From Candidatus Nomurabacteria bacterium GW2011_GWA1_36_15 (GTDB lineage: Bacteria > Patescibacteriota > Minisyncoccia > Phycocordibacterales > UBA9973), in the NCBI GenBank assembly GCA_000991415.1, contig LBRM01000004.1:1398-65397 (forward strand): a stretch of DNA of 64,000 nt. The letters are read 5' to 3'. Shown here one piece after another: positions 1,917 through 32,086 of the stretch. Both the position numbers and the translations under genes were made by a program. The number at the start of each line of letters is the position of its first letter. Position 1 is the stretch's first letter. A model generated the notes under the pieces. That model was not told the origin of the DNA. It saw nothing but the letters and a program-made list of their open reading frames with translations, and searched no databases.

Positions 1917-3752
1917 ATGAAAATATCTTATAATTGGCTCAAATGGTATATCCCGGAAATTCCAAAAGCAGAAAAATTACGAGATATTTTTACCTATTAT
2001 CTTTGTGAAGTTGAAAACATTGAAAAAAAAGGGGGCGATACTATTTTTGATGTAAATATTTTACCAAACAGGGCGCATGATTTGCTTAGCCACCTTGGTA
2101 TTGCTCGGGAACTCGCTTCACTTTTGAATATATCTTTTAAAGATCCAACTCCGATGTATAAAATTCCAGAGACGAAATCTACTAATTTAAAAATAAAATT
2201 GGAAACTGATAAATGCCGTCGTTATATGGGGCGGATCGTAAGAAATGTGAAAATTGGGCCCTCGCCCGACTGGGTACAGAAACATTTAGAGTCTATTGGG
2301 CAAAGAAGCATCAATAATATTGTAGATGCAACAAATATTGTTATGTATGATTCCGGACAGCCATGTCATGCTTTTGACTTGGATAAACTAGCGAACGAGA
2401 TATTAATTATTAGGCAGGCAAAAGAAGGAGAAAATATAACAACTCTTGATGGCAAAGAAGTGAAACTTTCGTCTATGGATATGGTGATTGCGGATGAAAA
2501 AAATATTCTAGCCATTGCTGGGGTGAAAGGCGGGAAGCTTGCCGAAGTGGATGGAAATACCAGAAATATTTTGATAGAAGTAGCGAGTTTTGATCCTATC
2601 TCTGTGCGTAAAACCTCAAAAAGAATGGGAATTTTAACTGATTCTTCTAAAAGATTTGAGAATAATTTATCTCCGGAAATTGTTTTTTATGCCATGAGAG
2701 AGATTTCGGGACTTTTAGTCGAATATGGCGGACTTGAGTTTGAAAAAATAATAGATATTTATCCAAACAAACAAAAACCCAGAGGACTTTCTTTTTCGGC
2801 TGATAAAATATCTAAAATTTTAGGGGTGGCAATATCGGAAACCGAAATAGAAAATATTTTGAAAAGATATAATTTTGAATATGAAAATAAAAATAGAGAA
2901 TTTAAAATTGTTATTCCACCGACGCGTTTTGATTTGGAGATAGAAGAGGATATGGCAGAAGAGATAGGAAGAATTTTGGGATACGATAAGGTAAAGCCAA
3001 AAATTCCGAAAATTAATTTCAAACCGAAAGTAAATAATACATATGCAAAAATTAGTTGGGCGCGGAATAAATTACTTAGTGAAGGTTATAGCGAAGTGAT
3101 GACTTATAGTTTTTGTAATAAAGGAGAAGTAGAAGTACTTGCCTCTGCATCAGATAAAAATTTTTTAAGAACAGGTTTGAATAACGGTTTAAAAGAAAGT
3201 TTGAAATTAAATCAACTCAATGCGCCCTTGTTTCAGATGGATGATATAAAAATTTTTGAAATTGGGACGGTATTTAAAAAAGGTACGGAAGAGATAAATA
3301 TTGCTTATGGTGATAAAAAAGAAATAAAAGAAATTGAATTAAATAAATTTGTTTCTGAAAAGCTTTCTTCTGAAGAGCACGGATATTTTTCTGCTGAAAA
3401 ATTCCTCGTGCTCGCGCCGTCGCGCTCCCAAGTCTCTTCAGGAGAAACTTTTCATTCACAAATTTTCAAAATGTGGTCAATGTATCCATTTATCACCCGT
3501 GATATTGCAGTCTGGGTTCCAGAAAATATTTCAAGTAGTGAGGTAGAGAAAGTTATAAAAAATAATGCCGGAGAACTTGTTATAAGGGGTCCAGAACTAT
3601 TTGATCAGTTTAAAAAAGGGAACCAAATTTCTTACGCTTTTAAGTTGGTTTTTCAATCTTATGAAAGAACTCTTACAGATGATGAAGTTAATGAAATTAT
3701 GGCTAAAATAGGCCATAAAATAAGCGAAAATTCAAGCTGGCAAATACGATAA
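1917..3752 (+). CDS. pheT: phenylalanine--tRNA ligase beta subunit (short form lacking N-terminal tRNA-binding domain)
   Basis: 611 aa; B3/B4 motif IVDATNIVMYDSGQPCHAFDLDKL, B5 and C-terminal FDX-ACB-like region; directly follows pheS. Confidence 0.88.
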   Translation: MKISYNWLKWYIPEIPKAEKLRDIFTYYLCEVENIEKKGGDTIFDVNILPNRAHDLLSHLGIARELASLLNISFKDPTPMYKIPETKSTNLKIKLETDKCRRYMGRIVRNVKIGPSPDWVQKHLESIGQRSINNIVDATNIVMYDSGQPCHAFDLDKLANEILIIRQAKEGENITTLDGKEVKLSSMDMVIADEKNILAIAGVKGGKLAEVDGNTRNILIEVASFDPISVRKTSKRMGILTDSSKRFENNLSPEIVFYAMREISGLLVEYGGLEFEKIIDIYPNKQKPRGLSFSADKISKILGVAISETEIENILKRYNFEYENKNREFKIVIPPTRFDLEIEEDMAEEIGRILGYDKVKPKIPKINFKPKVNNTYAKISWARNKLLSEGYSEVMTYSFCNKGEVEVLASASDKNFLRTGLNNGLKESLKLNQLNAPLFQMDDIKIFEIGTVFKKGTEEINIAYGDKKEIKEIELNKFVSEKLSSEEHGYFSAEKFLVLAPSRSQVSSGETFHSQIFKMWSMYPFITRDIAVWVPENISSSEVEKVIKNNAGELVIRGPELFDQFKKGNQISYAFKLVFQSYERTLTDDEVNEIMAKIGHKISENSSWQIR

Positions 3753-3840
3753 AACACTAGTTTTTTTGTTACTTTTTTGCTATAATATATAAAGCAAAAA
3801 TAGATTTTTGCTTTTATTTTTGAGTCAATTTTGACACCAA

Positions 3841-5928
3841 ATGGCTAAAGAAAAAGAGATAAAAAGTGGGCATCATTATGATGCCTCAGATATATCGGTT
3901 CTCGAAGGACTTGATCCGGTTAGACGTCGTCCCGGAATGTATATCGGAACCACAGGTCCCGAAGGATTACATCATTTAGTTTGGGAAATTTTTGATAACT
4001 CACGCGATGAAGCGATGGGTGGTTTTTGTGATGATATAGAAGTTGTGCTTTTACCAAATAATCGTGTTCGTGTGGCAGACAATGGCAGAGGCGTGCCTGT
4101 TGATATACATAAAAAAACTAAAGTATCCGCCTTAGAAACGGTAATGACCACACTTCATGCCGGAGGAAAATTCGGAGGGGAAAACAGTGGATATAAAGTT
4201 TCTGGAGGATTGCATGGTGTTGGGGCCTCCGTTGTGAATGCGCTTTCTATTTACTGTAAAGCAGAAGTGCACAAAGATGGTGGCAAATATATCCAGGAAT
4301 ATTCTCAGGGTAAGAAAAAATCTCTGGTGAAAAAAGTCAATTCTTCCAAGTTGCATGGAACTATTATCACTTTTGAACCAGATAAAGAAATTTTTAAAGA
4401 TATAAAATTTGATTGGAATACGATTATTGGTCACATTCGTCAACAAGCATATTTGGTAAAAGGGCTTAAAATTTTAATAATTGATGCTCGGGGATACGAG
4501 GGAAAAATAGATGATTCAGATGTTTTCTATTTTAGAGAGCTGGGACTTGAATTGCCTTCTGTCTCTTTTTATTTTGAGGGAGGGCTTACTTCGCTTATAA
4601 AATATTATAATAAGTTTCAGAAACCGGTTCATAATAGTATTTTTTATGTCGAGAAAGAATTGGATAATGTACTAGTAGAAATAGCTCTTCAATATGTGGA
4701 TGATATTGTGGACCGTATCATTCCTTTTGCCAACAATATTTATACGGGAGAAGGTGGCACGCATGTGACTGGCTTTAAAACTGCATTAACTAGAACCCTA
4801 AACACCTACTGCAAAAAAAATGAAATGATGAAAGAATCGGAAGGTGGTTTTACAGGGGATGATGTTTTAGAAGGTTTGACTTGTGTTATTTCCGTTAAGC
4901 TTCGGGAAATCCAATTTGAGGGCCAAACAAAAGCAAAATTGGGTTCTATGGAAGCACAGGGTGCCGTTGGTACCGTATTCGGGGAAACATTTACAAACTT
5001 TCTAGAAGAAAATCCAGATGAAGCGAAAGCTATAATTAATAAATCTGTGCTTGCTTTAAAAGCACGTAAAGCCGCCAAGGCAGCAAAAGATTCGGTACTT
5101 CGCAAAGGTGCGCTTGAAGGTATGACCCTTCCTGGTAAATTAGCAGATTGTCAAAGTAAAAGTGCAGAAGAATCTGAATTATTTTTAGTGGAAGGAGATT
5201 CAGCTGGTGGTTCAGCCAAACAAGGCAGAGATAGACGCATTCAAGCGGTGTTGCCTCTTCGCGGAAAAATTTTAAATGTTGAACGCGCGCGCATAGATAA
5301 AATGTTGGCCTCTAAAGAAGTAAGAGCTCTAGTTATTGCTATGGGAACTTCTATTGGAGATACTTTTGATCTTTCTAAAATGCGTTATCATAAAATAATT
5401 ATTGCGACAGATGCTGATGTTGATGGGGCGCATATTCGTACCCTTTTACTTACTCTTTTTTATAGATATTTTAGACAAGTCATTGAAACGGGATATATTT
5501 ATATTGCCCAACCACCGCTTTATAAGATAAAAAAAGGCAAAGAAATCAGTTATGCTTATTCTGATGCAGAAAAAATAAAAATTATTGGGAAAGAAACCGA
5601 TGTAAGTGAAATACAAGCGGTAGAAACTGATGTTGAAGTTCCGGAAGGGGAAATTATTGAAAATGAAAAATCACCCGCCCGAACGGCCGAGGCCTCTCGG
5701 TCGGGCGGGAATAAAATTCATATCCAACGCTACAAAGGTCTCGGGGAAATGAATCCGGAGGAACTCTGGGAAACGACTATGGATCCGGCCCATCGCGTAC
5801 TGAAGAAAGTAAATATAGACGATGCCGAAGAAGCCAATAAAGTTTTTGAAATTCTAATGGGCTCTGAAGTTCCTCCTCGCAAATCTTTTATTCAGTCCAA
5901 CGCCAAATTAGCGGAGATTGATATTTAA
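3841..5928 (+). CDS. gyrB: DNA gyrase subunit B
   Basis: GHKL ATPase HHLVWEIFDNSRDEAMGG, LHGVGASVVNALS; TOPRIM EGDSAGGSAKQGRDRR, IIIATDADVDGAHIRTLLLTLFYRY, PPLYKI. Confidence 0.95.
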   Translation: MAKEKEIKSGHHYDASDISVLEGLDPVRRRPGMYIGTTGPEGLHHLVWEIFDNSRDEAMGGFCDDIEVVLLPNNRVRVADNGRGVPVDIHKKTKVSALETVMTTLHAGGKFGGENSGYKVSGGLHGVGASVVNALSIYCKAEVHKDGGKYIQEYSQGKKKSLVKKVNSSKLHGTIITFEPDKEIFKDIKFDWNTIIGHIRQQAYLVKGLKILIIDARGYEGKIDDSDVFYFRELGLELPSVSFYFEGGLTSLIKYYNKFQKPVHNSIFYVEKELDNVLVEIALQYVDDIVDRIIPFANNIYTGEGGTHVTGFKTALTRTLNTYCKKNEMMKESEGGFTGDDVLEGLTCVISVKLREIQFEGQTKAKLGSMEAQGAVGTVFGETFTNFLEENPDEAKAIINKSVLALKARKAAKAAKDSVLRKGALEGMTLPGKLADCQSKSAEESELFLVEGDSAGGSAKQGRDRRIQAVLPLRGKILNVERARIDKMLASKEVRALVIAMGTSIGDTFDLSKMRYHKIIIATDADVDGAHIRTLLLTLFYRYFRQVIETGYIYIAQPPLYKIKKGKEISYAYSDAEKIKIIGKETDVSEIQAVETDVEVPEGEIIENEKSPARTAEASRSGGNKIHIQRYKGLGEMNPEELWETTMDPAHRVLKKVNIDDAEEANKVFEILMGSEVPPRKSFIQSNAKLAEIDI

Positions 5929-7682
5929 CTACTTTTCTCTTCTATTTCTTTTTTTAGCTTTGTGAGAAATTCTTCAGTGGAAATGTTTTCAAATTTTTTA
6001 TCGTTTCTGCCTTCCACGGTAAGCTTTTTTGATCCTTTTTCCCTGTCACCGATAATTATTAGATATGGAATTTTTTGTACCTTTGCGTTGCGAATTTTTT
6101 TACTCAAAGATTCATTAGATTCATCAAGCTCCACACGCACGTCATTTTCTTTTAGAGTTTTAAAAATTTCAGTGGCATAGTCCAGATGTTTGTCTCCCGA
6201 AATTGGAATAATTTTTATTTGCACTGGAGAGAGCCAAAGAGGGAATGCGCCAGCATAATGTTCAATTAAAATTCCCATAAATCTTTCAAAAGAACCCAAT
6301 ATAGCCACATGTAGAACTACTACTCGATGTTTTTTGCCGTCTTCTCCCACATAATCCATCTCGAAATTATTTGGTTGATTAAAATCAAGTTGTATTGTTG
6401 CTAGTTGCCATTCTCTTCCGATCGAATCTTTTATTTTTATGTCAATTTTAGGTCCATAAAATGCAGCTTCGCCTTCCTCAACGTTGTATTTTAGACCCAT
6501 TTTTTTTGCAGAATTAATTAATATTTTTTCTGCATTCTCCCATATTTCATCATTTCCGAAATATTTTTCTTTATTTTTAGTGTTTCGTGTAGAAACTTCG
6601 ACTTTGTAATTATCAAAACCAAATAATTTGTAAACTTTTCGCATCAAACTAAAAATCATTTCAATTTCTGATTCAATTTGATCAGTTCTTATGAAATGAT
6701 GAGTGTCGTCTTGGGTTAGATTTTTAACGCGCAGAAGTCCGGATAATTCACCGCTTTTTTCATTGCGATAGACGGTTGTATTTTCTGCTATACGTAAAGG
6801 TAAATCACGATAGCTATGTAGTTCTGCATTATATATTTCAAAATGATGAGGGCAATTCATCGCTTTCATGACAAATTCTTCACCATCTTCATCCGTCATA
6901 ATTGGCATCATTGCGTTATATTTACCTATGTGTCCGCTACGAATGTAGAGTTCTTTTCTGGCTATGTGTGGAATGGTTACAAAAAAATAACCCAATTTTT
7001 CTTTTTCTTTTCTTATGAAATTTTCTAATTCAGTTTTAATGATATTGCCTTTTGGTAAATACATTGGTAGCCCTTTGCCAACTAAATCTGAGATAGTAAA
7101 CAAACTAAGTTCTTTTCCTAATTTCTTGTGGTCCCTCTTTTCGGCTTCTTTACGCATTTTGATGTATTCATCAAGTTTTTCTTTTGTCTCAAAAGCCAAT
7201 CCGTAAATACGAGTAAGCATTTTGTTTTTTTCATTTCCACGCCAATATGCTCCAGCCACACGGTCTAACTTAAATGAATCAAATTTAATTTCTTTACTTG
7301 GATTTTTCAAATGTCCTCCTCGGCAAAGATCTGTAAAATCTCCACATTTATAAAAAGTTATTTTTTCACCTTTTCCAATGATTTCTTCTATCAGTTCTAT
7401 TTTGTATTCATTCTTTTTAAAATATTCTTTTGCCTCTTTTTCACTTTTTTCTTTACTCTCAAACTCTTTCCAAGATTTTAAAATCTCTTTCATTTTCTTC
7501 TCTATTTTAGGCAAATCTTTATCAGAAATAGGTGAACTAAACTCAAAATCATAATAAAAACCGTCTTCTATTGATGGGCCGATAGTATTTTTTGTATCTG
7601 GATATATCTTTAAAACAGCTGCAGCTAAAAGGTGAGCTAAAGAATGTCTTAAATTATGCAGTTTTTCATTCTTATTTTCCAT
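5925..7682 (-). CDS. thrS: threonine--tRNA ligase
   Basis: 585 aa; HSLAHLLAAA (HxxxH second-additional domain), class II core FYGPKIDIKIKDSIGREWQLATIQLDFNQP, anticodon-binding C-terminus. Confidence 0.9.
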   Translation of the reverse strand: MENKNEKLHNLRHSLAHLLAAAVLKIYPDTKNTIGPSIEDGFYYDFEFSSPISDKDLPKIEKKMKEILKSWKEFESKEKSEKEAKEYFKKNEYKIELIEEIIGKGEKITFYKCGDFTDLCRGGHLKNPSKEIKFDSFKLDRVAGAYWRGNEKNKMLTRIYGLAFETKEKLDEYIKMRKEAEKRDHKKLGKELSLFTISDLVGKGLPMYLPKGNIIKTELENFIRKEKEKLGYFFVTIPHIARKELYIRSGHIGKYNAMMPIMTDEDGEEFVMKAMNCPHHFEIYNAELHSYRDLPLRIAENTTVYRNEKSGELSGLLRVKNLTQDDTHHFIRTDQIESEIEMIFSLMRKVYKLFGFDNYKVEVSTRNTKNKEKYFGNDEIWENAEKILINSAKKMGLKYNVEEGEAAFYGPKIDIKIKDSIGREWQLATIQLDFNQPNNFEMDYVGEDGKKHRVVVLHVAILGSFERFMGILIEHYAGAFPLWLSPVQIKIIPISGDKHLDYATEIFKTLKENDVRVELDESNESLSKKIRNAKVQKIPYLIIIGDREKGSKKLTVEGRNDKKFENISTEEFLTKLKKEIEEKSS

Positions 7683-23400: not shown

Positions 23401-23499
23401 ATTAAACCGCCAAATTCTCCTGCCTCATTTAATGTTTTGCTTAATTATCTACGAGGACTTGCGCTTGATGTTAACTTGAAAAAATATGAAAACTCTTAA
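20413..23499 (+). CDS. rpoB: DNA-directed RNA polymerase subunit beta
   Basis: 1028 aa; conserved regions incl. GPGGLTRERAGLEVRDVHPSHYGRVCPIHTPEGPNIGL, NMQKQAVP, GRHGNKGV, MVEDKIHMRSIGPYSLITQQPLGGKAQGGGQRFGEMEVWALEGYGAAYTLREML. Confidence 0.97.
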   Translation: MQTEKRPKKYFSRYKNPLIEFPNLIEAQTKSYKWLVEEGLKEVFKEFSPIIDYSGKKFELEFTSFSLSEPNCEENDAKINKLSYQGLLKTRVKLTNKILGTVKEQEIFMSEIPLMTPHGTFIINGVERVIVPQLARSFGVFFTESESKGYIRIDKKRKFPATALLRVLGYNTNETILKAFEKTPNCKEVIEACLAKDVAKTLSDSYIEIYKRLRDGDMATPENAKEFINSLFTPERYDLSPVGRYRFNKRFDKSLEEKELVRRTISKEDLMTVIANIIVLNNTLGAKSDDIDHLGQRRVRFVGEMLQQKVRTGMMQIKRNIQDRMSIIDVDTAMPIHIINQRPLQARIKEFFTTNQLSQFMAQENVLCEMEHLRTLSALGPGGLTRERAGLEVRDVHPSHYGRVCPIHTPEGPNIGLILHLSTYAKINDFGIIETPYIKVKNGKITKEIQYLNALEEEKYNIAHAGIPYDENGKITEEKVEARVKTNPGMITRNQVDFIDVAANQGFSVATSMIPFLEHNDANRALMGSNMQKQAVPCVLPEVPLVATGVEALASRDSGRMVLASEDGVVSYLDAKKIIVKGKTEKIYSLVNFLRNNNFSAFHQRPAVNIGQKVKKGDVLADTTSTVDGQISIGQNVFIAFLSWSGLNYEDAVIISERLVKKSKFTSVYVEEFVCTVRDTKLGPEITTRDIPNVGELKLKDLDEDGIVRIGAEVRENDILIGKITPKGETELTPEERLLRSIFAEKARDVKDTSLRMEHGKRGRIIGIKIFSRDLGHTLEAGIIKKIVIEVAQIRNISVGDKLSGRHGNKGVISRILPEEDMPYTAEGIPVDIILSPLGVPSRMNLGQILEMHLGMAANALGYQAVVPPFLGAKREEIKEELKKAGLPENGKLKLFDGRTGESFDQDVAVGYMYMLKLHHMVEDKIHMRSIGPYSLITQQPLGGKAQGGGQRFGEMEVWALEGYGAAYTLREMLTIKSDDILGRSQTFDSIIKNEIIKPPNSPASFNVLLNYLRGLALDVNLKKYENS

Positions 23500-26400
23500 T
23501 AAAACTGATTTTGATTATATTTCGCTCAAACTTGCATCTCCCGAGCAGATAAAAGACTGGTCTTATGGAGAAGTCACTAAACCGGAAACCATAAATTATC
23601 GTACAGGTAGATCTGAACGAGGAGGTCTTTTTGATGAAAAAATATTCGGACCGGAAAAAGATTATGAATGCTATTGTGGAAAATATCGTCGCATTCGCTA
23701 CAAGGATATTATTTGTGAGAAATGCGGAGTGGAAGTAACTCGTTCTATTGTTAGGCGTGAAAGAATGGGGCATATTGAGTTATCAACACCCGTTGCTCAC
23801 ATTTGGTTTTTGCGGGGAGTGCCTTCTCGCATGAGCATCCTTCTGAATATTTCAGTATCCGATCTTGAGAAAGTGATATATTTTGCCGGATATATTATTA
23901 CCAAAGTGCATGAAGATGAAAAAGAAAAAATAATTAGTAATTTAGAAAAAGAATATAAAGCTAAATTAAAAAATGCGACTGATGATGACACGCGTAAAAG
24001 ATTAAAAGATTTATTTTCTAATACTAAAAAAGAAATTTTAGAAATTTATGAAGGGAAAGTTTTAAATGAAATTTCTTTTCATCATTATTCTTTGAAATAC
24101 GGTATTTGTTTTGAAGCAAATATAGGAGCTGAAGCTATTTATTCTATTTTCAAAAATCTTGATTTGAATAAATTAAAAATTCACACCGAGAAAATGATTG
24201 AAAAGGCAAGTATCATAGAAAAAGAAAAATTACAGAAAAGACTCTCACTCATTCGTGCTATGACTTATGCCGGTATTCGTCCAGAATGGATGTTTTTGAC
24301 TGTTATTCCGGTTATTCCTCCAGTTTTGCGTCCAATGGTTGCCTTAGACGGGGGACGCCATGCAACGTCGGATTTGAATGACCTTTATCGTCGAGTAATA
24401 AATCGCAATAATCGCTTGAAAAAATTGAAAGAAATAAATGCACCAGATGTAATCTTGCGAAACGAAAAAAGAATTATTCAAGAAGCAGTGGATGCGCTTA
24501 TAGATAATTCAATTGCCAAACAAAATGACAGTGCTGCCATGAGTCAATCTCAAAAACGTCCTTTGAAATCTTTATCTGATAATCTAAAATCCAAACAAGG
24601 TTTGTTTCGTCAGAATTTGCTCGGTAAGCGCGTAGATTATTCAGGTCGTTCGGTTATCGTGGTTGGTCCGGAACTCAGACTTAATCAATGCGGATTGCCG
24701 AAACATATGGCTCTTGAACTTTTTAGGCCGTTTGTCATTTCTAAAATTTTACAAGCTGAATTGGCATTTAATATTCGTGGGGCCAATAAACTCATAGAAG
24801 AACGCACTCCGGAAGTCTGGGCGATGTTAGAAGAAGTAATTCAAGGAAAATATGTTCTCTTAAACCGCGCCCCCACTCTTCATCGTCTGGGTATTCAGGC
24901 TTTTAATCCGATTCTGATTGAAGGAAATGCTATTCAAGTGCATCCGCTTGTTTGTCAGGCTTTTAACGCTGACTTCGACGGAGACCAAATGGCGGTGTAT
25001 GTTCCTCTTTTAGAAGAGGCTCAATGGGAAGCCAAAGAATTAATGGCTGCTAATAAAAATCTTCTTAAACCTCAAAACGGCGACCCGATAGTGCATCCCA
25101 GCAAGGATATAGTACTTGGATCTTACTGGATGACTAAATCCGTTGACGGTGAACTTGGTGAGGGTAAATATTTTTCCAGCCCTAATACCGCCATCACTGC
25201 TTATGAATATGGAGTTGTTTCTCTTAGAGCCAAGATAAAAGTTCTGGCAACGAACAATCGTAAATACCTTAAATTTAATGAAGGATTTTTTGATACTTCC
25301 GTTGGCAAACTTCTTTTTAACAGCATTTTACCGAGTGATTTTTCTTATGTCAGTGATGAAATGACCCAAAAGAGATTATCTTCTCTTGTTGATGAGCTTA
25401 TTATACACTATGGGGTGGACGATACTCCTCCTATCTTGGACAAGATAAAAAGTTTCGGTTTCAAATATTCCACATTCTCCGGCACCACTTGGGGATTAGA
25501 TAATGTTAAAGTGCCTTCTGAAAAAGCAAAAATTGTTGAAGAGGGGAGGAAATTGGAAGAGAAAACAATCTCAGAGTGGAAAGAAGGCCTTCTTTCCGAA
25601 GAAGAAAGATATCAAAAAATTATCGAAATTTGGACTTATACTAAAAAAGAATTGGAAAAAGTTCTTCCCAAGACCCTTGATAAAAATGGTTCTACTTACG
25701 ATTTGTTTATGTCCGGAGCCAGGGGCACTATGACCTCTTTAATCCAAATGGCGGGAATGAAAGGCCTTATTCAGAACAACCAGGGTAAAACATTGGAATT
25801 TCCTATCATTCCTAGTTATCAAGAAGGACTTTCTCCCATTGAATATTTCGTCACTACTCACGGCGCTCGTAAGGGGGCCTCAGATACCGCCTTAAATACT
25901 GCTAAAGCCGGATATTTAACCCGCAGACTGGTTGATGTTGCGCAGGATGTAGTTATTACTGAAAAAGATTGCGGAACAAAAGAAGGAAAAGTAGTAAGTC
26001 GAGAAAATATCTCCGGAATTGAAATTCCTCTCTCAAAAAATATCAGCGGACGTGTATTGGCGGGCGACCTTAAAGACAAAGACGGCAAAGTAATTTATAA
26101 GAAAAAGTTTTTAATTACTAAAGAAGAGGCACATAAAATTGAAGGAGCAGGTTTTGAGGAAGTGTTTGTTCGTTCTCCACTTACTTGTCGTACCACTCAC
26201 GGGCTTTGCCAGATGTGTTATGGATTGGATTTGGGACGAAATCGTCTTGTTGACTTGGGAGAAGCGGTTGGTATTATCGCCGCTCAAGCCATAGGAGAAC
26301 CGGGTACTCAGCTCACCTTGCGCACCTTTCATGCCGGAGGAGTGGCTGGCACAGACATCACTACAGGATTGCCTCGTATTGAAGAAATTTTTGAAAGACG

Positions 26401-27091
26401 CATTCCCAAAAATCCAGCTATCATTTCTGAAACTGATGGGGAAGTTTTTGAAATAAAAGATAAAGATGCGAAAGAAAAAATAATTAAGGTACTTTCTGAC
26501 GTCAAAAATGGCAAATCTAATGAAATAGAATACACTGTACCATTCCGCAGGATGCCGATAGTAAAAGTAGGCCAGAGAGTAAAGAAAGGCGAGCTTCTAA
26601 CTGACGGGTCTGCGGATATTACTGAAATATTTAAATTCGGGACTAAAGAATTAGTTGAAGAATATATCATTCGAGAAATAAACAAAGTTTACGAATTGCA
26701 AAGCGCCTCGATTTCCAGAAAACATACTGAAATAATTATTCGCCAAATGTTTTCACGCAAAAAAATAAAAGATGCCGGCGAAACTAATTTCTCTATTGGT
26801 GATATTGTTGAAAATACAGCCTTTATTGAAGAAAATGAAAGAGTAGCTAAATTAAAACAAGAGGAAGCCAGAGCGGAAACAATCGTTCTTGGTATTACGG
26901 AAGTATCTCTTCGCACTAAGAGTTGGCTCTCTGCCGCCTCTTTCCAAAATACCAATCGGGTGCTCATCGAGAATGCAGTAAAAGGCGGAGTTGACTCTCT
27001 AAGAGGTTTGAAGGAAAATGTCATTATTGGACGATTAATTCCAGCCGGTACTGGATTTAAGAGCAAAGTTTCTTTACCAGAAGAGGAATAA
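23486..27091 (+). CDS. rpoC: DNA-directed RNA polymerase subunit beta'
   Basis: 1201 aa; zinc-binding CYCGKYRRIRYKDIICEKCGVEV, NADFDGDQM catalytic motif, conserved C-terminal G-loop regions. Confidence 0.97.
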   Translation: MKTLNKTDFDYISLKLASPEQIKDWSYGEVTKPETINYRTGRSERGGLFDEKIFGPEKDYECYCGKYRRIRYKDIICEKCGVEVTRSIVRRERMGHIELSTPVAHIWFLRGVPSRMSILLNISVSDLEKVIYFAGYIITKVHEDEKEKIISNLEKEYKAKLKNATDDDTRKRLKDLFSNTKKEILEIYEGKVLNEISFHHYSLKYGICFEANIGAEAIYSIFKNLDLNKLKIHTEKMIEKASIIEKEKLQKRLSLIRAMTYAGIRPEWMFLTVIPVIPPVLRPMVALDGGRHATSDLNDLYRRVINRNNRLKKLKEINAPDVILRNEKRIIQEAVDALIDNSIAKQNDSAAMSQSQKRPLKSLSDNLKSKQGLFRQNLLGKRVDYSGRSVIVVGPELRLNQCGLPKHMALELFRPFVISKILQAELAFNIRGANKLIEERTPEVWAMLEEVIQGKYVLLNRAPTLHRLGIQAFNPILIEGNAIQVHPLVCQAFNADFDGDQMAVYVPLLEEAQWEAKELMAANKNLLKPQNGDPIVHPSKDIVLGSYWMTKSVDGELGEGKYFSSPNTAITAYEYGVVSLRAKIKVLATNNRKYLKFNEGFFDTSVGKLLFNSILPSDFSYVSDEMTQKRLSSLVDELIIHYGVDDTPPILDKIKSFGFKYSTFSGTTWGLDNVKVPSEKAKIVEEGRKLEEKTISEWKEGLLSEEERYQKIIEIWTYTKKELEKVLPKTLDKNGSTYDLFMSGARGTMTSLIQMAGMKGLIQNNQGKTLEFPIIPSYQEGLSPIEYFVTTHGARKGASDTALNTAKAGYLTRRLVDVAQDVVITEKDCGTKEGKVVSRENISGIEIPLSKNISGRVLAGDLKDKDGKVIYKKKFLITKEEAHKIEGAGFEEVFVRSPLTCRTTHGLCQMCYGLDLGRNRLVDLGEAVGIIAAQAIGEPGTQLTLRTFHAGGVAGTDITTGLPRIEEIFERRIPKNPAIISETDGEVFEIKDKDAKEKIIKVLSDVKNGKSNEIEYTVPFRRMPIVKVGQRVKKGELLTDGSADITEIFKFGTKELVEEYIIREINKVYELQSASISRKHTEIIIRQMFSRKKIKDAGETNFSIGDIVENTAFIEENERVAKLKQEEARAETIVLGITEVSLRTKSWLSAASFQNTNRVLIENAVKGGVDSLRGLKENVIIGRLIPAGTGFKSKVSLPEEE

Positions 27092-27096
27092 AAAAT

Positions 27097-27483
27097 ATGG
27101 AAAAAGAATATGATAATTGGAATAAATTAAAAAAAGATTTATCAACCAAGGAATCAAAAATTTTCTTTCATGAAAGGGAAGTTTGGTACTGCTCTTTAGG
27201 TAAAAATATTGGTTACGAAGAAGACGGCAAAAATGAATTATTTGAAAGACCAATTCTTATCGTTAGAAAATTTAATAATGATATATTCCTAGCTATTCCA
27301 TTAACTAGTTCAAAAAAAGATAATAAATACTACCATCAATACGAATTCAGTGGAAAAACTTTTGCTGGTATCCTATCGCAAATAAGATTATTAGACAGTA
27401 GGAGGCTTTCTAGAAAAATTGGGATGATAAAAGAAAGTGATTTTAGTACTATAATTAAAAAGATTCACAATGTTCTTCCATAA
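27097..27483 (+). CDS. mazF: PemK/MazF-family endoribonuclease toxin (orphan; no adjacent small antitoxin ORF)
   Basis: 128 aa; EREVWYCSLGKNIGYEEDGKNELFERPILIVRKFNNDIFLAIPLTS and GILSQIRLLDSRRLSRKIGMIKESDF align with EndoA/MazF core (GDVY..L.P..GSEQ.G.RPVLVI...TS...QIRTIDKQRL..KI..L); starts 5 bp after rpoC stop. Confidence 0.75.
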   Translation: MEKEYDNWNKLKKDLSTKESKIFFHEREVWYCSLGKNIGYEEDGKNELFERPILIVRKFNNDIFLAIPLTSSKKDNKYYHQYEFSGKTFAGILSQIRLLDSRRLSRKIGMIKESDFSTIIKKIHNVLP

Positions 27484-27488
27484 AAGAC

Positions 27489-27515
27489 GAAACCCCCTTG
27501 CGGGGGTTTCTCGGA
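27489..27515 (+). terminator. hairpin / probable terminator
   Basis: gaaaccccc-ttgc-gggggtttc 9-bp GC-rich stem; weak U-tract. Confidence 0.45.
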
Positions 27516-27558
27516 GGCCGAAGCCATTTACCACTAGAGTATAGCAAATGTAAAATAT

Positions 27559-28191
27559 ATGTCAAATGAAGAAGTGGAAAATATAAATCCCTTTAAAAAA
27601 GTAGAAAATTCTTTAACCAAAGAGCAATTTTTAAATATAGATGAGGTATTTAAGGATAATCTCGAAATAGCTAATATATTTAATGCAAACAAAGAATTAT
27701 TTCAGAAATATCTTGATAGTATTTTTCCAGATAGTAAGGTTAAGGAAATTGTCTGGCATGGAACAAATTCAAAATTTGAAGAAGAAAAATTTGATAAATC
27801 AAGAATAGGTACATCTACTCAAAATATTACTAGTAAATTTGGATTTTATTTTGTTCCAGATAAAAAAGTCGCTGGAATTTTTACAAAAGGAAGTAAAATA
27901 GAAGCAGATAAGGGAATTATTCGACCCGAGAATTCAAAAATATATCCTGTACTTTTATTAATAAAAAATCCTGAAATAATAGAAGGAAAAATTTTTAGAG
28001 AATATGCTGAAAGAAATGAAATGCCACCTCTAAGACTAAATGGTGATTCTATTATAATTAATGCACAGACTAGTGATGCTAATGTTGAATTTTGTGTTAA
28101 AAACTATGTAGTATTTGAACCAGAACAAATTCATATTCTAGGTTCAGAGCAAGATATCTTACAAGCTAAAGAATGGTTAAAAAACAAATGA
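27559..28191 (+). CDS. putative ADP-ribosyltransferase-fold protein (PARP/Tpt1-like H-G-T ... Y ... E)
   Basis: 210 aa; EIVWHGTNSKFEEEKF resembles PARP LLWHGSRTTNF and KptA LYHGTASRFLDEIKK; FGFYFVPD resembles GIYFAD; C-terminal NYVVFEPEQIHILG resembles tankyrase/PARP NEYVIYRGEQ catalytic-Glu strand. Assignment by motif inspection only. Confidence 0.4.
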   Translation: MSNEEVENINPFKKVENSLTKEQFLNIDEVFKDNLEIANIFNANKELFQKYLDSIFPDSKVKEIVWHGTNSKFEEEKFDKSRIGTSTQNITSKFGFYFVPDKKVAGIFTKGSKIEADKGIIRPENSKIYPVLLLIKNPEIIEGKIFREYAERNEMPPLRLNGDSIIINAQTSDANVEFCVKNYVVFEPEQIHILGSEQDILQAKEWLKNK

Positions 28192-29015
28192 TGATAAACT
28201 CTCCCGTGCAACAAATTAAGGAGAGGCTTTCAATCGAAGAAATAGTCTCTTCCTATATAAAGTTAGAAAAGGCAGGCGCGAATTTTAAAGCCAGATGTCC
28301 ATTTCATAACGAAAAAACACCGTCTTTTTTTGTGTCGCCGGATCGCGCCAGTTACTATTGTTTCGGTTGCGGAGCCAAAGGCGATATTTTTTCTTTTATT
28401 GAAGAATTTGAAGGGCTTGATTTTAAGGGCGCCTTAAAAATCCTGGCAGAGCGAGCGGGAATTCCTTTAGTGCAGTACAGTAAAGAAAAAGAAGGAGAGA
28501 AAGAAAAATTATACCGAGCGATGGAAGAAGCTACCAAATTTTTTGAAAAAAATTTAGCAGAAAATAAGAAAATACTGGAATACTTGAAATCAAGAGGTCT
28601 AGAAGAAAAAACAATCGGAGATTTTAAAATTGGATTTTCTTTGCTTGATTGGAGAACGTTATTTGAGTATTTGAAATCTAAAGGTTTTTCTGATAAAGAA
28701 ATTGAACTTGCTGGTTTGGTAAAGAAGACAGAGAAAGGATTTTATGACAGATTTCGCGGAAGAATAATGTTTCCAATTTCTGATTCAAGCGGTCGCATTA
28801 TTGCTTTTTCCGGCAGGATTTTTGAAGATGACGGTAAATCAGCCAAATATCTGAATAGCCCGGACACTCCAATCTTCAGTAAATCGGCAGTTTTGTATGG
28901 ATTGGATAAAGCCAAAGAATCGATTCGCAAAAATAATTTTTCTATTCTGGTGGAAGGACAAATGGATTTGATCTTATCTCATCAGGCTGGATTTAGAAAT
29001 ACCGTAGCCATTTAG
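28173..29015 (+). CDS. dnaG: DNA primase DnaG, N-terminal fragment (zinc-binding + start of TOPRIM), truncated by TAG created by 19-bp tandem duplication
   Basis: CPFHNEKTPSFFVSPDRASYYCFGCGAKGD CHC2 zinc finger; RNA-polymerase domain; ends ...ILVEGQMDLILSHQAGFRNTVAI*. Confidence 0.85.
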   Translation: MVKKQMMINSPVQQIKERLSIEEIVSSYIKLEKAGANFKARCPFHNEKTPSFFVSPDRASYYCFGCGAKGDIFSFIEEFEGLDFKGALKILAERAGIPLVQYSKEKEGEKEKLYRAMEEATKFFEKNLAENKKILEYLKSRGLEEKTIGDFKIGFSLLDWRTLFEYLKSKGFSDKEIELAGLVKKTEKGFYDRFRGRIMFPISDSSGRIIAFSGRIFEDDGKSAKYLNSPDTPIFSKSAVLYGLDKAKESIRKNNFSILVEGQMDLILSHQAGFRNTVAI

Positions 29016-29029
29016 AAATACCGTAGCCA
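28992..29029 (+). repeat. perfect 19-bp tandem duplication (tttagaaataccgtagcca x2) inside dnaG
   Basis: Copy 1 28992-29010, copy 2 29011-29029; removing one copy restores a single dnaG frame reading ...GFRNTVATSGTALSDA... (canonical TOPRIM motif). Confidence 0.9.
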
Positions 29030-29193
29030 CCTCCGGTACAGCTCTTTCAGATGCTACGGTTTCCAAAGAAAATGTCGTTTCAAATTTAGGATTATTACGC
29101 CGTCTTTCCGGGAATATTATTCTGGCTTTTGACGCAGATCGGGCAGGCTTTAATGCTTCTTCCCGGGCCGGCAAAATTGCTCTTTCTTTCGGT

Positions 29194-29925
29194 ATGGATG
29201 TAAAAGTAGTTTCTATGTCGGAAGGGATTGACCCGGCAAGTTTAATTTCCCAAGATGGCACAGATGCATGGCGCACGGCTATTCGTAACTCAAAGCACAT
29301 CATAGAATTTCTTTTGGACAAGATTTTGAATAGCCACAAAGAAGATATGCGCAAGGTTGGCAGAGAAATAAGAGAAAAAATATTGCCGTATGTCGATTCC
29401 ATTGAAAGCGCCATCGAAAAATCACATTTTATTAAAATTATCAGCAACAAATCTGGTATAGCTGAGAACGCTCTTTTAGAAGATCTGAAAAAGGTTCAGT
29501 CTGAATTGAAATTTGAAACAGAAGAGATAAGAACTGCTAAAGAAAATGTGGAGAAAAAAATGAGAAAAGATCCGATTGAACGCAGACTTCTAGGTATAGC
29601 CTTTTGGCAGGAGAACATTCAAGATAAAACCATTGATCCGGAATTGATTTTTCAAAAATTAGACAAAGCGAAAGAAATTTATAAGGATATAGAAGAAGAT
29701 TTAATTTATGAAGCGGAGGAATTTTATTCAAACAGCGAGAATTTGCAAAAAGATGTAGATGAAATGCTGTTAAATATTGAAGAGGAATATTTAAACGAAG
29801 AACTGAATAAAAAGATGGTGGAACTTAATAATTTTAAAAATAAAAAAGAGGAGATGGAAATTTTGAAAAAGATAAATGAAATAATTAAGAAAAAAGAAGA
29901 AATTAGAAATAATCGTAGTCGCTAA
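29194..29925 (+). CDS. dnaG: DNA primase DnaG, C-terminal fragment (frame open from 29008; first Met at 29194)
   Basis: Frame contiguous with post-duplication dnaG: TSGTALSDATVSKENVVSNLGLLRRLSGNIILAFDADRAG (TOPRIM DxD) ... C-terminal helical domain. Confidence 0.8.
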
Positions 29926-29933
29926 TAAAAAAC

Positions 29934-31163
29934 ATGAAAACAAAAAACAAAAAATCAAAGAAAAAAATCGCAAAATCTAAATCAAAAAAGATCCACAAGA
30001 AAGCTGTAAAAAAGGTGACAAAAAAAAGAAAAGCACTTAAAAAATTCAAAAAACCCTTAAAAACAAAGGCTCTAAAAAAACTGACCTCTGCAGAAAAAAA
30101 AGCAGACGCCTTTGCTCGTCTTTCAAGTGAATTGATAGAAAAAGGGCGAAAAAGAGGATTTATCACCTATGATGAAATACTAAAGACTTTTCCGGATGTT
30201 GAAAATAATATTTTCTTCCTAGACGAACTGTATGAGAAATTTGCCATTGCGGGCATAGATGTACTGGAAGGCGGAAACTTGCTTAATCTGGATGATGATA
30301 ATCTTGATAAGGATTTAAATAAATCTACCATCCATGACTCTATTCAAATGTATTTGAAAGAAATAGGACAATATTCGCTTATTCATGCAAGCGATGAAAA
30401 ATATCTCGCTAAACGCATAGAACTAGGCGATCTGGAGGCGAAAAATTTATTAGCCAGAGCGAATCTACGCTTAGTGGTTTCAATTGCTAAAAAATATGTA
30501 GGTAGAAGCGCTAATTTAAACCTCTTGGATCTAATTCAAGAAGGGAATTTAGGACTATTTAAGGCAGTTGAAAAATTCGATTGGACTAAAGGATATAAAT
30601 TTTCCACTTATGCCACCTGGTGGATTCGTCAATCTATTACTCGTGCCTTAGCTGACCAAAGCAGGACCATTCGTATACCGGTGCATATGGTGGAAACTAT
30701 TTCAAAATATAAACAAACATATCGAAAACTTAGCCAAGACCTGGGACGAGAACCGTTAGCGGAAGAAATTGCCACAGAAATGAATATTCCCGTTGAAAAA
30801 ATCCACGTAATTGAAAACATCAGCCAAGAGACTGTTTCTCTAGAACAGCCGGTGGGGGACGATGACGATAAGTCAACTCTTGAAAATTTTATTCCGGATG
30901 ATAAAATTTTGCGTCCGGATCAGGAATCTTCTCGCAGGATCTTGTCCGATCAGATTCGGGAAGTTTTAAACGAACTGAATCCGAAAGAATGCAAAATACT
31001 GGAAATGCGTTATGGATTAGTAGATGGCATTCAACATACTCTTGAACGAGTAGGGGAGGAGTTTGGTGTTACTCGCGAACGTATTCGTCAAATAGAAGCG
31101 AAAGTTCATGAAAAACTTCGCCAACACGAAAAAATCACAAGGTTAAAGAATTATTTTGACTAA
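29934..31163 (+). CDS. rpoD: RNA polymerase sigma factor RpoD (sigma-70) with Lys-rich N-terminal tail
   Basis: Regions 2-4: [52 protein letters not shown]-terminal [20 protein letters not shown]; follows dnaG (MMS operon order). Confidence 0.95.
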
Positions 31164-31597: not shown

Positions 31598-31671
31598 CTA
31601 AAATTTTTGTCCTCTAAAAAGTATTTAGTGCTAACCCAAATTGGGCTTGTTTACGTATTGTATCTTATTAT

Positions 31672-31691
31672 ATCTCAGCCATGGCGTAGAT
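31672..31691. promoter_or_regulatory. 20-bp imperfect palindrome atctcagccatggcgtagat (operator-like), overlaps promoter of 31718 gene
   Basis: 18/20 self-complementary; partner perfect copy at 32101-32120; TATAAT at 31705-31710 follows. Confidence 0.5.
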
Positions 31692-31717
31692 GTACTTTAG
31701 GGTGTATAATTAGAATT

Positions 31718-32086
31718 ATGGTTACAGGAAGAAAATTAAGATATAAAGGTGTATCAGTAAATATGTTCGGTATTCCGAATTTAAGTGAACCTCAAAAAGA
31801 AGAGAAAGTTTTGAAGCGCAAATATCTTCATTCTTTTATATCTGATTTTAAAAAAGATACGCCCAAAAATTTACTACTTATGTATGACATTCCTCACACA
31901 AGAAAGAAGGAAAGAGATTGGTTTCGTCGTCAGCTTAAAAACTTTGATTTTGTTATGATTCAAAAAAGTGTTTGGGTCGGTCCATCACCATTACCAAAAG
32001 ACTTCTTTAATTACTTAAAAAGAATTGGTTTGCAAAAAGAATTTAAAACATTTAAATTAGCTAAATCTTATACAAATAAGGCTTGA
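31718..32086 (+). CDS. hypothetical small basic protein (weak Cas2/VapD-like YDI...R...G...Q-SVW motif), probably leaderless
   Basis: ORF track begins at 31607 but first 37 codons cover a palindromic operator and a TATAAT box; ATG 31718 lies 8 nt after TATAAT. LLLMYDIPHTRKKERDWFRRQLKNFDFVMIQKSVW motif. Confidence 0.45.
   Translation: MVTGRKLRYKGVSVNMFGIPNLSEPQKEEKVLKRKYLHSFISDFKKDTPKNLLLMYDIPHTRKKERDWFRRQLKNFDFVMIQKSVWVGPSPLPKDFFNYLKRIGLQKEFKTFKLAKSYTNKA

Follow-up and report, generated by a model that had tools for sequence, protein, structure and literature searches.

A MazF-fold toxin gene with a convergent small RNA as candidate antitoxin, and a separate ADP-ribosyltransferase gene, in the rpoC-dnaG gap of Candidatus Nomurabacteria

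The analyzed stretch of DNA, a window of 64 kb from Candidatus Nomurabacteria (Patescibacteria, or candidate phyla radiation, CPR), carries two protein-coding genes between rpoC and dnaG and, in between on the other strand, the gene of a small structured RNA (Table 1; all positions are window positions). The first open reading frame (ORF1) encodes an RNase with the MazF/PemK fold, the second one (ORF2) encodes a stand-alone ADP-ribosyltransferase (ART), and the small RNA (sRNA) is a candidate antitoxin of the MazF-like protein. Consistent with the first-pass annotation of this DNA, mazF is tightly packed on rpoC, its ATG following the rpoC stop codon after a gap of 5 nucleotides (nt). Near-identical contigs from groundwater assemblies share the gene order rpoB, rpoC, ORF1, ORF2, dnaG, rpoD. 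The G+C content is 25-30% over ORF1 and ORF2, compared to 35-44% in the core genes on both sides.

Table 1. Features of the rpoC-rpoD region of the window (aa, amino acids).
Feature	Positions	Strand	Basis or remark
rpoC (RNA polymerase beta')	23486..27091	+	ORF list; Pfam RNA_pol_Rpb1 domains on the identical gene; stop TAA at 27091
MazF/PemK-fold endoribonuclease toxin gene (ORF1), 128 aa	27097..27483	+	Pfam, PDB, AlphaFold2 and Foldseek, alignments, PHROG 9567
Small structured RNA gene, candidate RNA antitoxin, ~53 nt	about 27531 to 27479	-	Covariance model R1, covariation, terminator, strand asymmetry of tetraloops
Sigma-70-type promoter of the small RNA	27538..27565	-	11 of 12 consensus matches, with TG; kept across loci
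Stand-alone ART-PolyVal gene (ORF2), PARP-like fold, 210 aa	27559..28191	+	Stop codon overlaps the dnaG start
dnaG (primase)	28191..29925	+	Split by a 19-nt tandem duplication in the window
rpoD	29934-31163		Downstream of dnaG

ORF1 matches the Pfam family PemK_toxin (PF02452) at 35.4 bits (cut-off 23.1) over residues 27-127, and PHROG 9567, 'MazF-like growth inhibitor', matches it at 72 bits; neither ORF1 nor ORF2 has a match in NCBIfam or PADLOC. The profile of the ORF1 family retrieves EndoA/YdcE of B. subtilis from PDB (E-value 1.4e-6), as well as other MazF structures. Moreover, the AlphaFold2 (AF2) model of ORF1 has a predicted local distance difference test score (pLDDT) of 91, and Foldseek matches it, with probability 1.0 and template modeling (TM) scores of about 0.7-0.8, to MazF from S. 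aureus, B. subtilis, E. coli, and M. tuberculosis, the common fold being the SH3-like barrel. The catalytic Arg (R29 in E. coli, R25 in B. subtilis) corresponds to R51, invariant in the subfamily alignment, and the catalytic Thr (T52 and T48, respectively) corresponds to T70, which aligns to the P-x-T motif of E. coli MazF; Pro in position 68 of the P68-x-T70 motif is also invariant. ORF1 is a MazF/PemK-fold RNase with intact catalytic residues, and the MazF/EndoA core recognized in the first-pass annotation is confirmed by all these comparisons. The protein is presumably toxic to growth.

The Pfam match begins at residue 27, in agreement with the N-terminal extension of about 25 aa that had been noted in this protein. 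The extension is a trait of the entire subfamily, with a helix predicted at residues 5-17 (pLDDT 84-92 in the AF2 model) and invariant Trp in position 8 (W8). Another subfamily feature is a five-residue GK-x3-F insertion immediately before the catalytic Arg. Both the Trp helix and the insertion are carried by more than 200 homologs of about 126-135 aa. A scan of one genome per species yielded at least 590 relatives, most of them in Patescibacteria, and others in Rickettsiales-like and further metagenome-assembled genomes (MAGs). The subfamily is also present on Campylobacterota plasmids, and the scan of viral contigs found it in two contigs only.

No small antitoxin gene is present upstream of mazF, as had been stated before. 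All ORFs of 35 aa or more situated up to 1.2 kb from 80 MazF loci were clustered, and no recurrent small protein neighbor emerged; genes of the MazE, PemI, AbrB, or ribbon-helix-helix (RHH) types adjoin mazF in none of these 80 loci. The recurrent neighbors are only housekeeping genes (such as rpoC, dnaG, pheS, and pheT) and, in five loci, the gene of a 574-aa Cys-rich protein. The genes 3' of MazF are diverse housekeeping genes; a widely conserved downstream dnaG, considered for downstream genes of about 570 aa, was rejected, since Pfam identifies dnaG in only three of the 77 downstream genes. The neighbors are mostly co-oriented with the module; this holds for the upstream gene in 41 of 53 loci and for the downstream gene in 48 of 58.

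Alignment of the DNA past the MazF stop codon across loci revealed a conserved element of about 90 nt. Read on the strand opposite to mazF, it starts with the -35 box TTGACA, a spacer of 16-17 nt, and the extended -10 box (TG)TATACT. About 7 nt after the latter there is a conserved (U/A)(A/C)AAAUGG segment, followed by a short stem, in many cases with C(UUCG)G as its cap, and by the linker (C/U)CCGAG. The next stem is longer and GC-rich, mostly with a GNRA tetraloop, and the U-tract after it extends to the mazF stop codon. The second class of elements has a shorter linker and a third hairpin, with the U-tract inside the last mazF codons.

In the window, the -35 box TTGACA (27565-27560) is separated by 16 nt from the extended -10 box TGcTATACT (27546-27538), and the transcription start is predicted near 27531. 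The 5' part of the sRNA is (G)UAAAUGG, followed by stem 2, GGC-UUCG-GCC (plus strand 27516-27525), the linker UCCGA, stem 1, GAAACCCCC-GCAA-GGGGGUUUC, and the U-tract overlapping the mazF stop codon. Stem 1 is the GC-rich hairpin between ORF1 and ORF2 (27489-27510), which was noted earlier merely as a hairpin and belongs to the conserved sRNA gene. The sRNA is fully complementary to the 3' end of mazF and its trailer. It is presumably transcribed in the window organism.

The covariance model R1 matches the window element at 66.8 bits (E-value 1e-17). The element is found 3' of the MazF-like gene and on the opposite strand by R1 in 54 loci and by a second model, R2, in 12 more, in total 66 of the 79 distinct loci at the species level; among the other loci, most contain variant forms recognized by eye. 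The carriers are mostly Patescibacteria, and a MazF-like gene lacking the RNA element altogether is a rarity, if it occurs at all. Neither R1 nor R2 has matches elsewhere in the window or in the ART and phage control loci, and no Rfam family matches the window region or 13 related loci at E-values up to 1.

Both stems are predicted by RNAalifold from 35 sequences, with compensatory changes in 12 of 13 base pairs and 95.6% of the cells paired. The covariation score is 0.64, compared to 0.22 for column shuffles (none of 500 reaches the observed value) and to at most 0.18 when the partners are slid; the covariation also holds on 66 model-aligned sequences, whose alignment was fitted to the model. 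The single-sequence folding z-score of the hairpin is only -1.7. Hairpin loops of the GNRA and UNCG types constitute 55 of 108 on the minus strand versus two of 107 on the plus strand. A promoter with at least 10 of 12 consensus matches and a spacer of 16-18 nt is present in 68% of loci, compared to 7% for the opposite strand and 1% for random segments, and the tail of the element is U-rich (on average, six of the last 10 nt). The bias of the tetraloops towards one strand, together with promoter conservation and the U-tract, points to a discrete RNA product of the minus strand.

Two simpler interpretations of the element were rejected. The hairpin alone could not be a plus-strand terminator, since no U-tract follows it on the plus strand. 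A short peptide starting in the AAAUGG segment of the sRNA is contradicted by the replacement of AUG with ACG or UUG in several loci, by the lack of conservation in the translations, and by the stems covarying as RNA.

A parallel comes from the plasmid pVir of Campylobacter jejuni 81-176, which encodes a member of the MazF subfamily (NC_008770.1, 30634-31038, plus strand) with the N-terminal Trp helix and the motifs NIG-E-GK, RPVL, and PL(S/T)S. Differential RNA sequencing (dRNA-seq) and Northern blots have identified the 77-nt sRNA CJpv3 on the minus strand of pVir (31119-31043), between pVir0047 and pVir0048 (Dugar et al. 2013, PMC3656092, Table S12). Our analysis has shown that CJpv3 is convergent to the MazF-like gene and begins 5 nt past its stop codon; the sequence of its Northern probe falls in the pVir region analyzed here, and this region folds stably (z = -3.7). 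As in the window, there are a promoter, hairpins, and a terminator hairpin beside the toxin stop codon, whereas the divergence of the RNA sequences puts them beyond the reach of the covariance models. The copy on the plasmid pVir comes from Campylobacterota, and that of the window is chromosomal and comes from a CPR bacterium. Moreover, pVir is reported, in citing statements of PMC10470494 and PMC7826846, to carry a type I system comprised of the RNA antitoxin CjrA and the protein toxin CjpT.

The element could also be a terminator or insulator with an antisense promoter that tunes read-through, or a DNA recombination site moving the cassette, the MazF-like protein then being a domesticated housekeeping RNase. 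The usual co-orientation of the module with housekeeping operons, its place between rpoC and dnaG kept across Nomurabacteria, and the persistence of the element without MazF would agree with such a role. Still, we consider it improbable, given the strand-specific tetraloops, promoter, and U-tract, the RNA of defined length seen on Northern blots at the homologous position of pVir, and the intact catalytic residues of MazF. Moreover, MazF identity across relatives (44-90%) does not track that of RpoC (75-92%), and the occurrence in multiple copies and many contexts is that of a mobile, toxin-antitoxin-like (TA-like) module.

The description of ORF1 as a toxin without a cognate antidote does not hold, as the conserved convergent sRNA gene accompanies the MazF subfamily, and this sRNA is probably the antidote. 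The reading that we favor, with a probability of about 0.6, is that of an RNA-antitoxin (type I-like) MazF module and an independent ART coupled to dnaG, both residing in a hypervariable slot. Under this reading mazF would be transcribed with or after rpoC, and the sRNA of about 53 nt would be produced from its own promoter on the opposite strand, ending at the hairpin and U-tract over the mazF stop codon. It would then pair with the 3' end and trailer of the mazF message, leading to message decay or blocked use, as in type I systems with 3' overlap. The antisense, type I-like mechanism is the most likely one. Pairing between the sRNA and the ribosome-binding region of mazF shows no cognate specificity (-12.4 kcal/mol for cognate versus -12.0 kcal/mol for non-cognate pairs, p 0.34), and in the absence of such co-evolving pairing any antisense action must proceed via the 3' overlap. 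Since mazF is usually co-directional with its operon, read-through transcripts should exist. The sRNA persists in loci that have lost MazF (L170 and L174), which is typical of antitoxins. The copies in these two loci, positioned directly after rpoC (3345-3398 in L170 and 2222-2275 in L174, both on the minus strand), look like orphan antitoxins.

Several observations weigh against this reading. The single-stranded 5' segment (U/A)(A/C)AAAUGG and the linker CCGAG are kept across phyla and are not needed for antisense action, so that the sRNA may instead bind protein, and its loops are stable tetraloops rather than typical kissing loops. The identity of CjpT/CjrA with the pVir MazF-like gene, CJJ81176_pVir0047 (WP_011117588.1), and CJpv3 is a strong lead but unverified, as CjrA could be CJpv2. 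Neither R1 nor R2 yields a score for the RNAs of Campylobacterota (pVir, Nitratiruptor), whose putative homology is argued from position and architecture only. Moreover, the adjacency of an RNase gene and an ART gene recurs (MazF twice, NYN twice, and RNase H in another clade), so that the ART and RNases may have a looser functional connection.

The conserved single-stranded segments might instead reflect a type III-like variant with the same partners, in which the dedicated sRNA would neutralize the subfamily by binding the MazF-like dimer, the single-stranded 5' segment UACAAAUGG serving as a pseudo-substrate in the active-site groove and the Trp helix holding the RNA. Conservation of these segments from Patescibacteria to Alphaproteobacteria, the ACA/UACA-like cores of MazF sites in the 5' motif, the capping of the stems by inert GNRA and UUCG tetraloops, and the co-occurrence of the helix carrying invariant W8 with the RNA throughout the subfamily are consistent with protein binding, as is the lack of cognate-specific pairing to the mazF translation start. 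However, the antitoxins of known type III systems are same-strand upstream tandem repeats processed by the toxin, neither feature being observed here. Full complementarity in cis makes antisense action unavoidable if both strands are transcribed, and the pVir system is reported as type I in the citing statements, the link to the MazF-like gene being unverified. We regard protein binding as a possible but rather doubtful alternative to antisense action.

The N-terminal extension itself might act as an intramolecular antidote, lying in the RNA groove until its release. Found in this subfamily alone, it forms a confidently predicted helix and has the invariant Trp, loosely recalling the Trp-containing C-terminus of MazE. 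We give this possibility hardly any credence: it leaves the universally conserved RNA gene unexplained, and no release mechanism is apparent.

Some MazF/sRNA modules have peculiar genomic positions. In six MAGs (L029, L032, L034, L058, L071, and L075, at about 4200-7600 in each), labeled as Nomurabacteria, Saccharibacteria, Paceibacterota, and Alphaproteobacteria, the module is situated between pheS and pheT, which reflects either a repeatedly used insertion site or an ancient linkage. Locus L056 has tandem MazF-like genes (3328-3805 and 4971-5453), each with its own convergent sRNA element. The MAGs SO_2016_GW1_123 and UBA6187 have copies of the module on two different contigs, indicating multi-copy behavior.

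The Cys-rich proteins found beside MazF/sRNA modules in five loci form a family of about 570-650 aa with zinc-ribbon-like CxxC pairs at both ends, and in two of the five loci members of this family bracket the module on both sides. They are encoded at 697-2421 in L009, 5464-7188 in L011, 1740-3698 and 4176-5873 in L038, 3150-4880 and 5466-7202 in L049, and 5491-7227 in L086. The family has no match in Pfam or PADLOC.

ORF2 matches the Pfam family ART-PolyVal (PF18760) at 37.1 bits (cut-off 31.2), covering profile positions 8-86 of 140 only. It has the ART fold of the H-Y-E class (PARP/diphtheria-toxin type). His in position 67 is present in 87 of 92 family members and Tyr in position 97 in 55 of 92. 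The position of the canonical catalytic Glu, at the start of a strand, appears to be occupied by Asn (N182), unlike in PARP-type H-Y-E enzymes; the corresponding family column contains Glu in 32, Gln in 14, Ser in 14, and Asn in 13 of the 92 proteins, and the strand is immediately followed by the highly conserved loop E187-P-E189-Q. The first-pass annotation had recognized an ART fold, with motifs reminiscent of the H-Y-E triad strands, and it was right about the fold, H67, and Y97, but the glutamates of its FEPEQ motif belong to the following loop. Its comparison with Tpt1/KptA is not supported, this being neither the closest fold nor the closest profile match. A sequence search of PDB with the ART yielded nothing meaningful, and PADLOC has no match for the ART homologs.

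The protein is most likely a NAD+-dependent mono-ADP-ribosyltransferase, or a variant without the canonical Glu. In phage contigs this domain resides in large proteins, longer than 500 aa in 75 of the 80 loci examined and mostly of 1500-3500 aa, in agreement with the name of the Pfam family. The ART descends from phage polyvalent proteins, and a single clade of Nomurabacteria has recruited it, as a stand-alone gene, to the position upstream of dnaG-rpoD. Since its stop codon overlaps the dnaG start, it is probably co-expressed with dnaG and rpoD, with translational coupling to dnaG, and its target could possibly be the transcription or priming machinery co-expressed with it.

Another clade of stand-alone ART-PolyVal proteins shows conserved synteny, the order being an acylphosphatase-like gene, an RNase H-like gene, ART, and lysS (L177, L178, L185, L187, L198, L208, L210, L217, L218, L226, and others). 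In many ART-PolyVal homologs the N-terminus reads M-x-C, and the last residue, at the end of a variable C-terminal tail, is Cys (family alignment A4, P0138-P0218).

The first-pass annotation had raised the possibility that MazF and ART form a toxin-antidote or defense pair; in such a pair the ART could, for instance, silence the RNase or its RNA targets by ADP-ribosylation. The two genes do recur together in a second lineage (L172), where both proteins are 44% identical to those of the window, again adjacent, with the convergent sRNA between their genes. Moreover, the same slot combines ART with another RNase, NYN, in two loci without MazF (L170, also containing an sRNA relic, and L184), and in the window the sRNA promoter immediately adjoins the start codon of ART. 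However, an ART relative within 5 kb was found in none of the 80 species-level MazF loci, including L008, where MazF is 90% identical to that of the window and occupies the same rpoC-dnaG position. In L174, ART is accompanied by the sRNA only, with no RNase gene beside it. The homologs with the highest identity in the catalytic domain, like other stand-alone ART clades, are found in unrelated contexts, whereas members of the clade that matches ORF2 along the entire length (42-47% identity) are always located between rpoC and dnaG. The domain in phages mostly belongs to large proteins, and PADLOC has no match for either protein. The neighborhood data largely refute the proposal, which we now consider highly improbable: the ART is not the antidote of the toxin, and the adjacency is best read as co-residence in a variable slot, not as a two-gene system. 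A looser link of the ART, to RNA metabolism or to the machinery of transcription and priming, is conceivable, although unsupported.

In Nomurabacteria, the gap that separates rpoC from dnaG is a hypervariable hotspot (loci L008, L009, L010, L082, L084, L170, L172, L174, and L184). It contains MazF and the sRNA alone, or together with the 574-aa Cys-rich protein, a 184-aa protein, or ART; the combinations without MazF are sRNA relic, NYN, and ART; sRNA and ART; and NYN and ART. Across relatives, ART identity is 42-62%. The ATG of the window ART (27559-27561) is beside, and overlaps, the -35 box of the sRNA (TGTCAA on the plus strand, 27560-27565). Unrelated downstream genes begin at the equivalent ATG in L009, L010, and L011, and in L008 the same ATGTCAA opens an ORF of five codons. 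Given these shared starts of unrelated genes, the slot genes appear to be swapped at exactly the ATG/-35 junction.

The primase gene following the slot is disrupted in the window by a 19-nt tandem duplication, ATTTAGAAATACCGTAGCC repeated twice (28992-29010 and 29011-29029), causing a frameshift and yielding two ORFs (28173/28191-29015 and 29194-29925). Two near-identical contigs (L001 and L003) lack the duplication and encode an intact primase of 571-577 aa, and L002 has a different lesion at the same spot; the duplication is either an assembly artefact or a strain-level disruption. For the ORF at 31607-32086, downstream of rpoD, the identical gene of related contigs has weak precomputed Pfam matches, namely PaaX_M and CRISPR_Cas2.

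MazF is the textbook type II toxin, and "solo" MazF genes are usually dismissed as orphans or as domesticated. Here, an entire MazF subfamily, found mainly in Patescibacteria with their reduced genomes, has a covarying sRNA gene in place of a protein antitoxin, and this subfamily is perhaps the most common toxin module in Patescibacteria. Should the sRNA prove to be the antidote, it would account for many "orphan" toxins, Rfam would gain a missing family, and CPR bacteria would gain a post-transcriptional control element inside core operons (rpoBC-dnaG-rpoD, pheST). If the sRNA binds protein instead, the module would represent an RNA-protein type of toxin-antitoxin system not classified so far, with the archetypal type II fold in its toxin. 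If CjpT is the pVir homolog, the window module would be a further member of a known system whose range is much widened. RNA-antitoxin systems as such are already known, and a MazF-family toxin in this role is known at most from one plasmid system. The module is not described in the searchable literature on CjpT, orphan MazF, and MazF in Patescibacteria, and the sRNA family, which spans phyla, is absent from this literature as well as from Rfam. In addition, the rpoC-dnaG hotspot of Nomurabacteria gathers RNases and a phage-derived ADP-ribosyltransferase.

Among known systems, the polyvalent proteins of phages and conjugative elements (PF18760) share the ART domain with ORF2, but in phages it is mostly embedded in proteins of mostly 1500-3500 aa, whereas the window protein is a chromosomal stand-alone one of 210 aa, coupled to dnaG. 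The type II systems MazEF, PemIK, and EndoA-EndoAI have the same toxin fold and the same catalytic Arg and Thr, and differ from the modules studied here in their adjacent protein antitoxin genes (seen in none of our 80 loci) and in lacking the additional N-terminal helix and five-residue insertion. The Rfam pemK RNA motif (RF02913) is also tied to pemK-family genes, but it is located upstream and on the same strand, in Firmicutes; it is classified in Rfam as cis-regulatory, and has no match in the window or the 13 related loci at E-values up to 1. Type III systems (ToxIN, CptIN, TenpIN) similarly combine an RNase toxin with a structured RNA partner, but their RNAs are tandem repeats located upstream on the same strand, with a terminator before the toxin gene, whereas the element described here is single-copy, downstream, and convergent.

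Type I systems with a convergent antisense RNA overlapping the 3' end of the toxin gene are represented by txpA/RatA and bsrG/SR4 of B. subtilis, and SymE/SymR is a type I system with a nuclease toxin. Another nuclease toxin of this type is RalR of the RalR/RalA system (PMC4041452). As in all four, the RNA gene of our module occupies the strand opposite to the toxin gene, whose message it overlaps or complements; it is a separate gene with a predicted promoter and terminator, and a transcript is known for the pVir homolog only. The small hydrophobic membrane toxin, typical of type I systems but not universal, is replaced here by a soluble RNase fold of 128 aa, and SymE and RalR demonstrate that type I toxins may be nucleases rather than membrane peptides. 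The module differs from these systems in that its toxin has the MazF/PemK fold, otherwise the archetype of type II protein-antitoxin systems, and its RNA is a compact two-hairpin molecule with sequence motifs kept across phyla.

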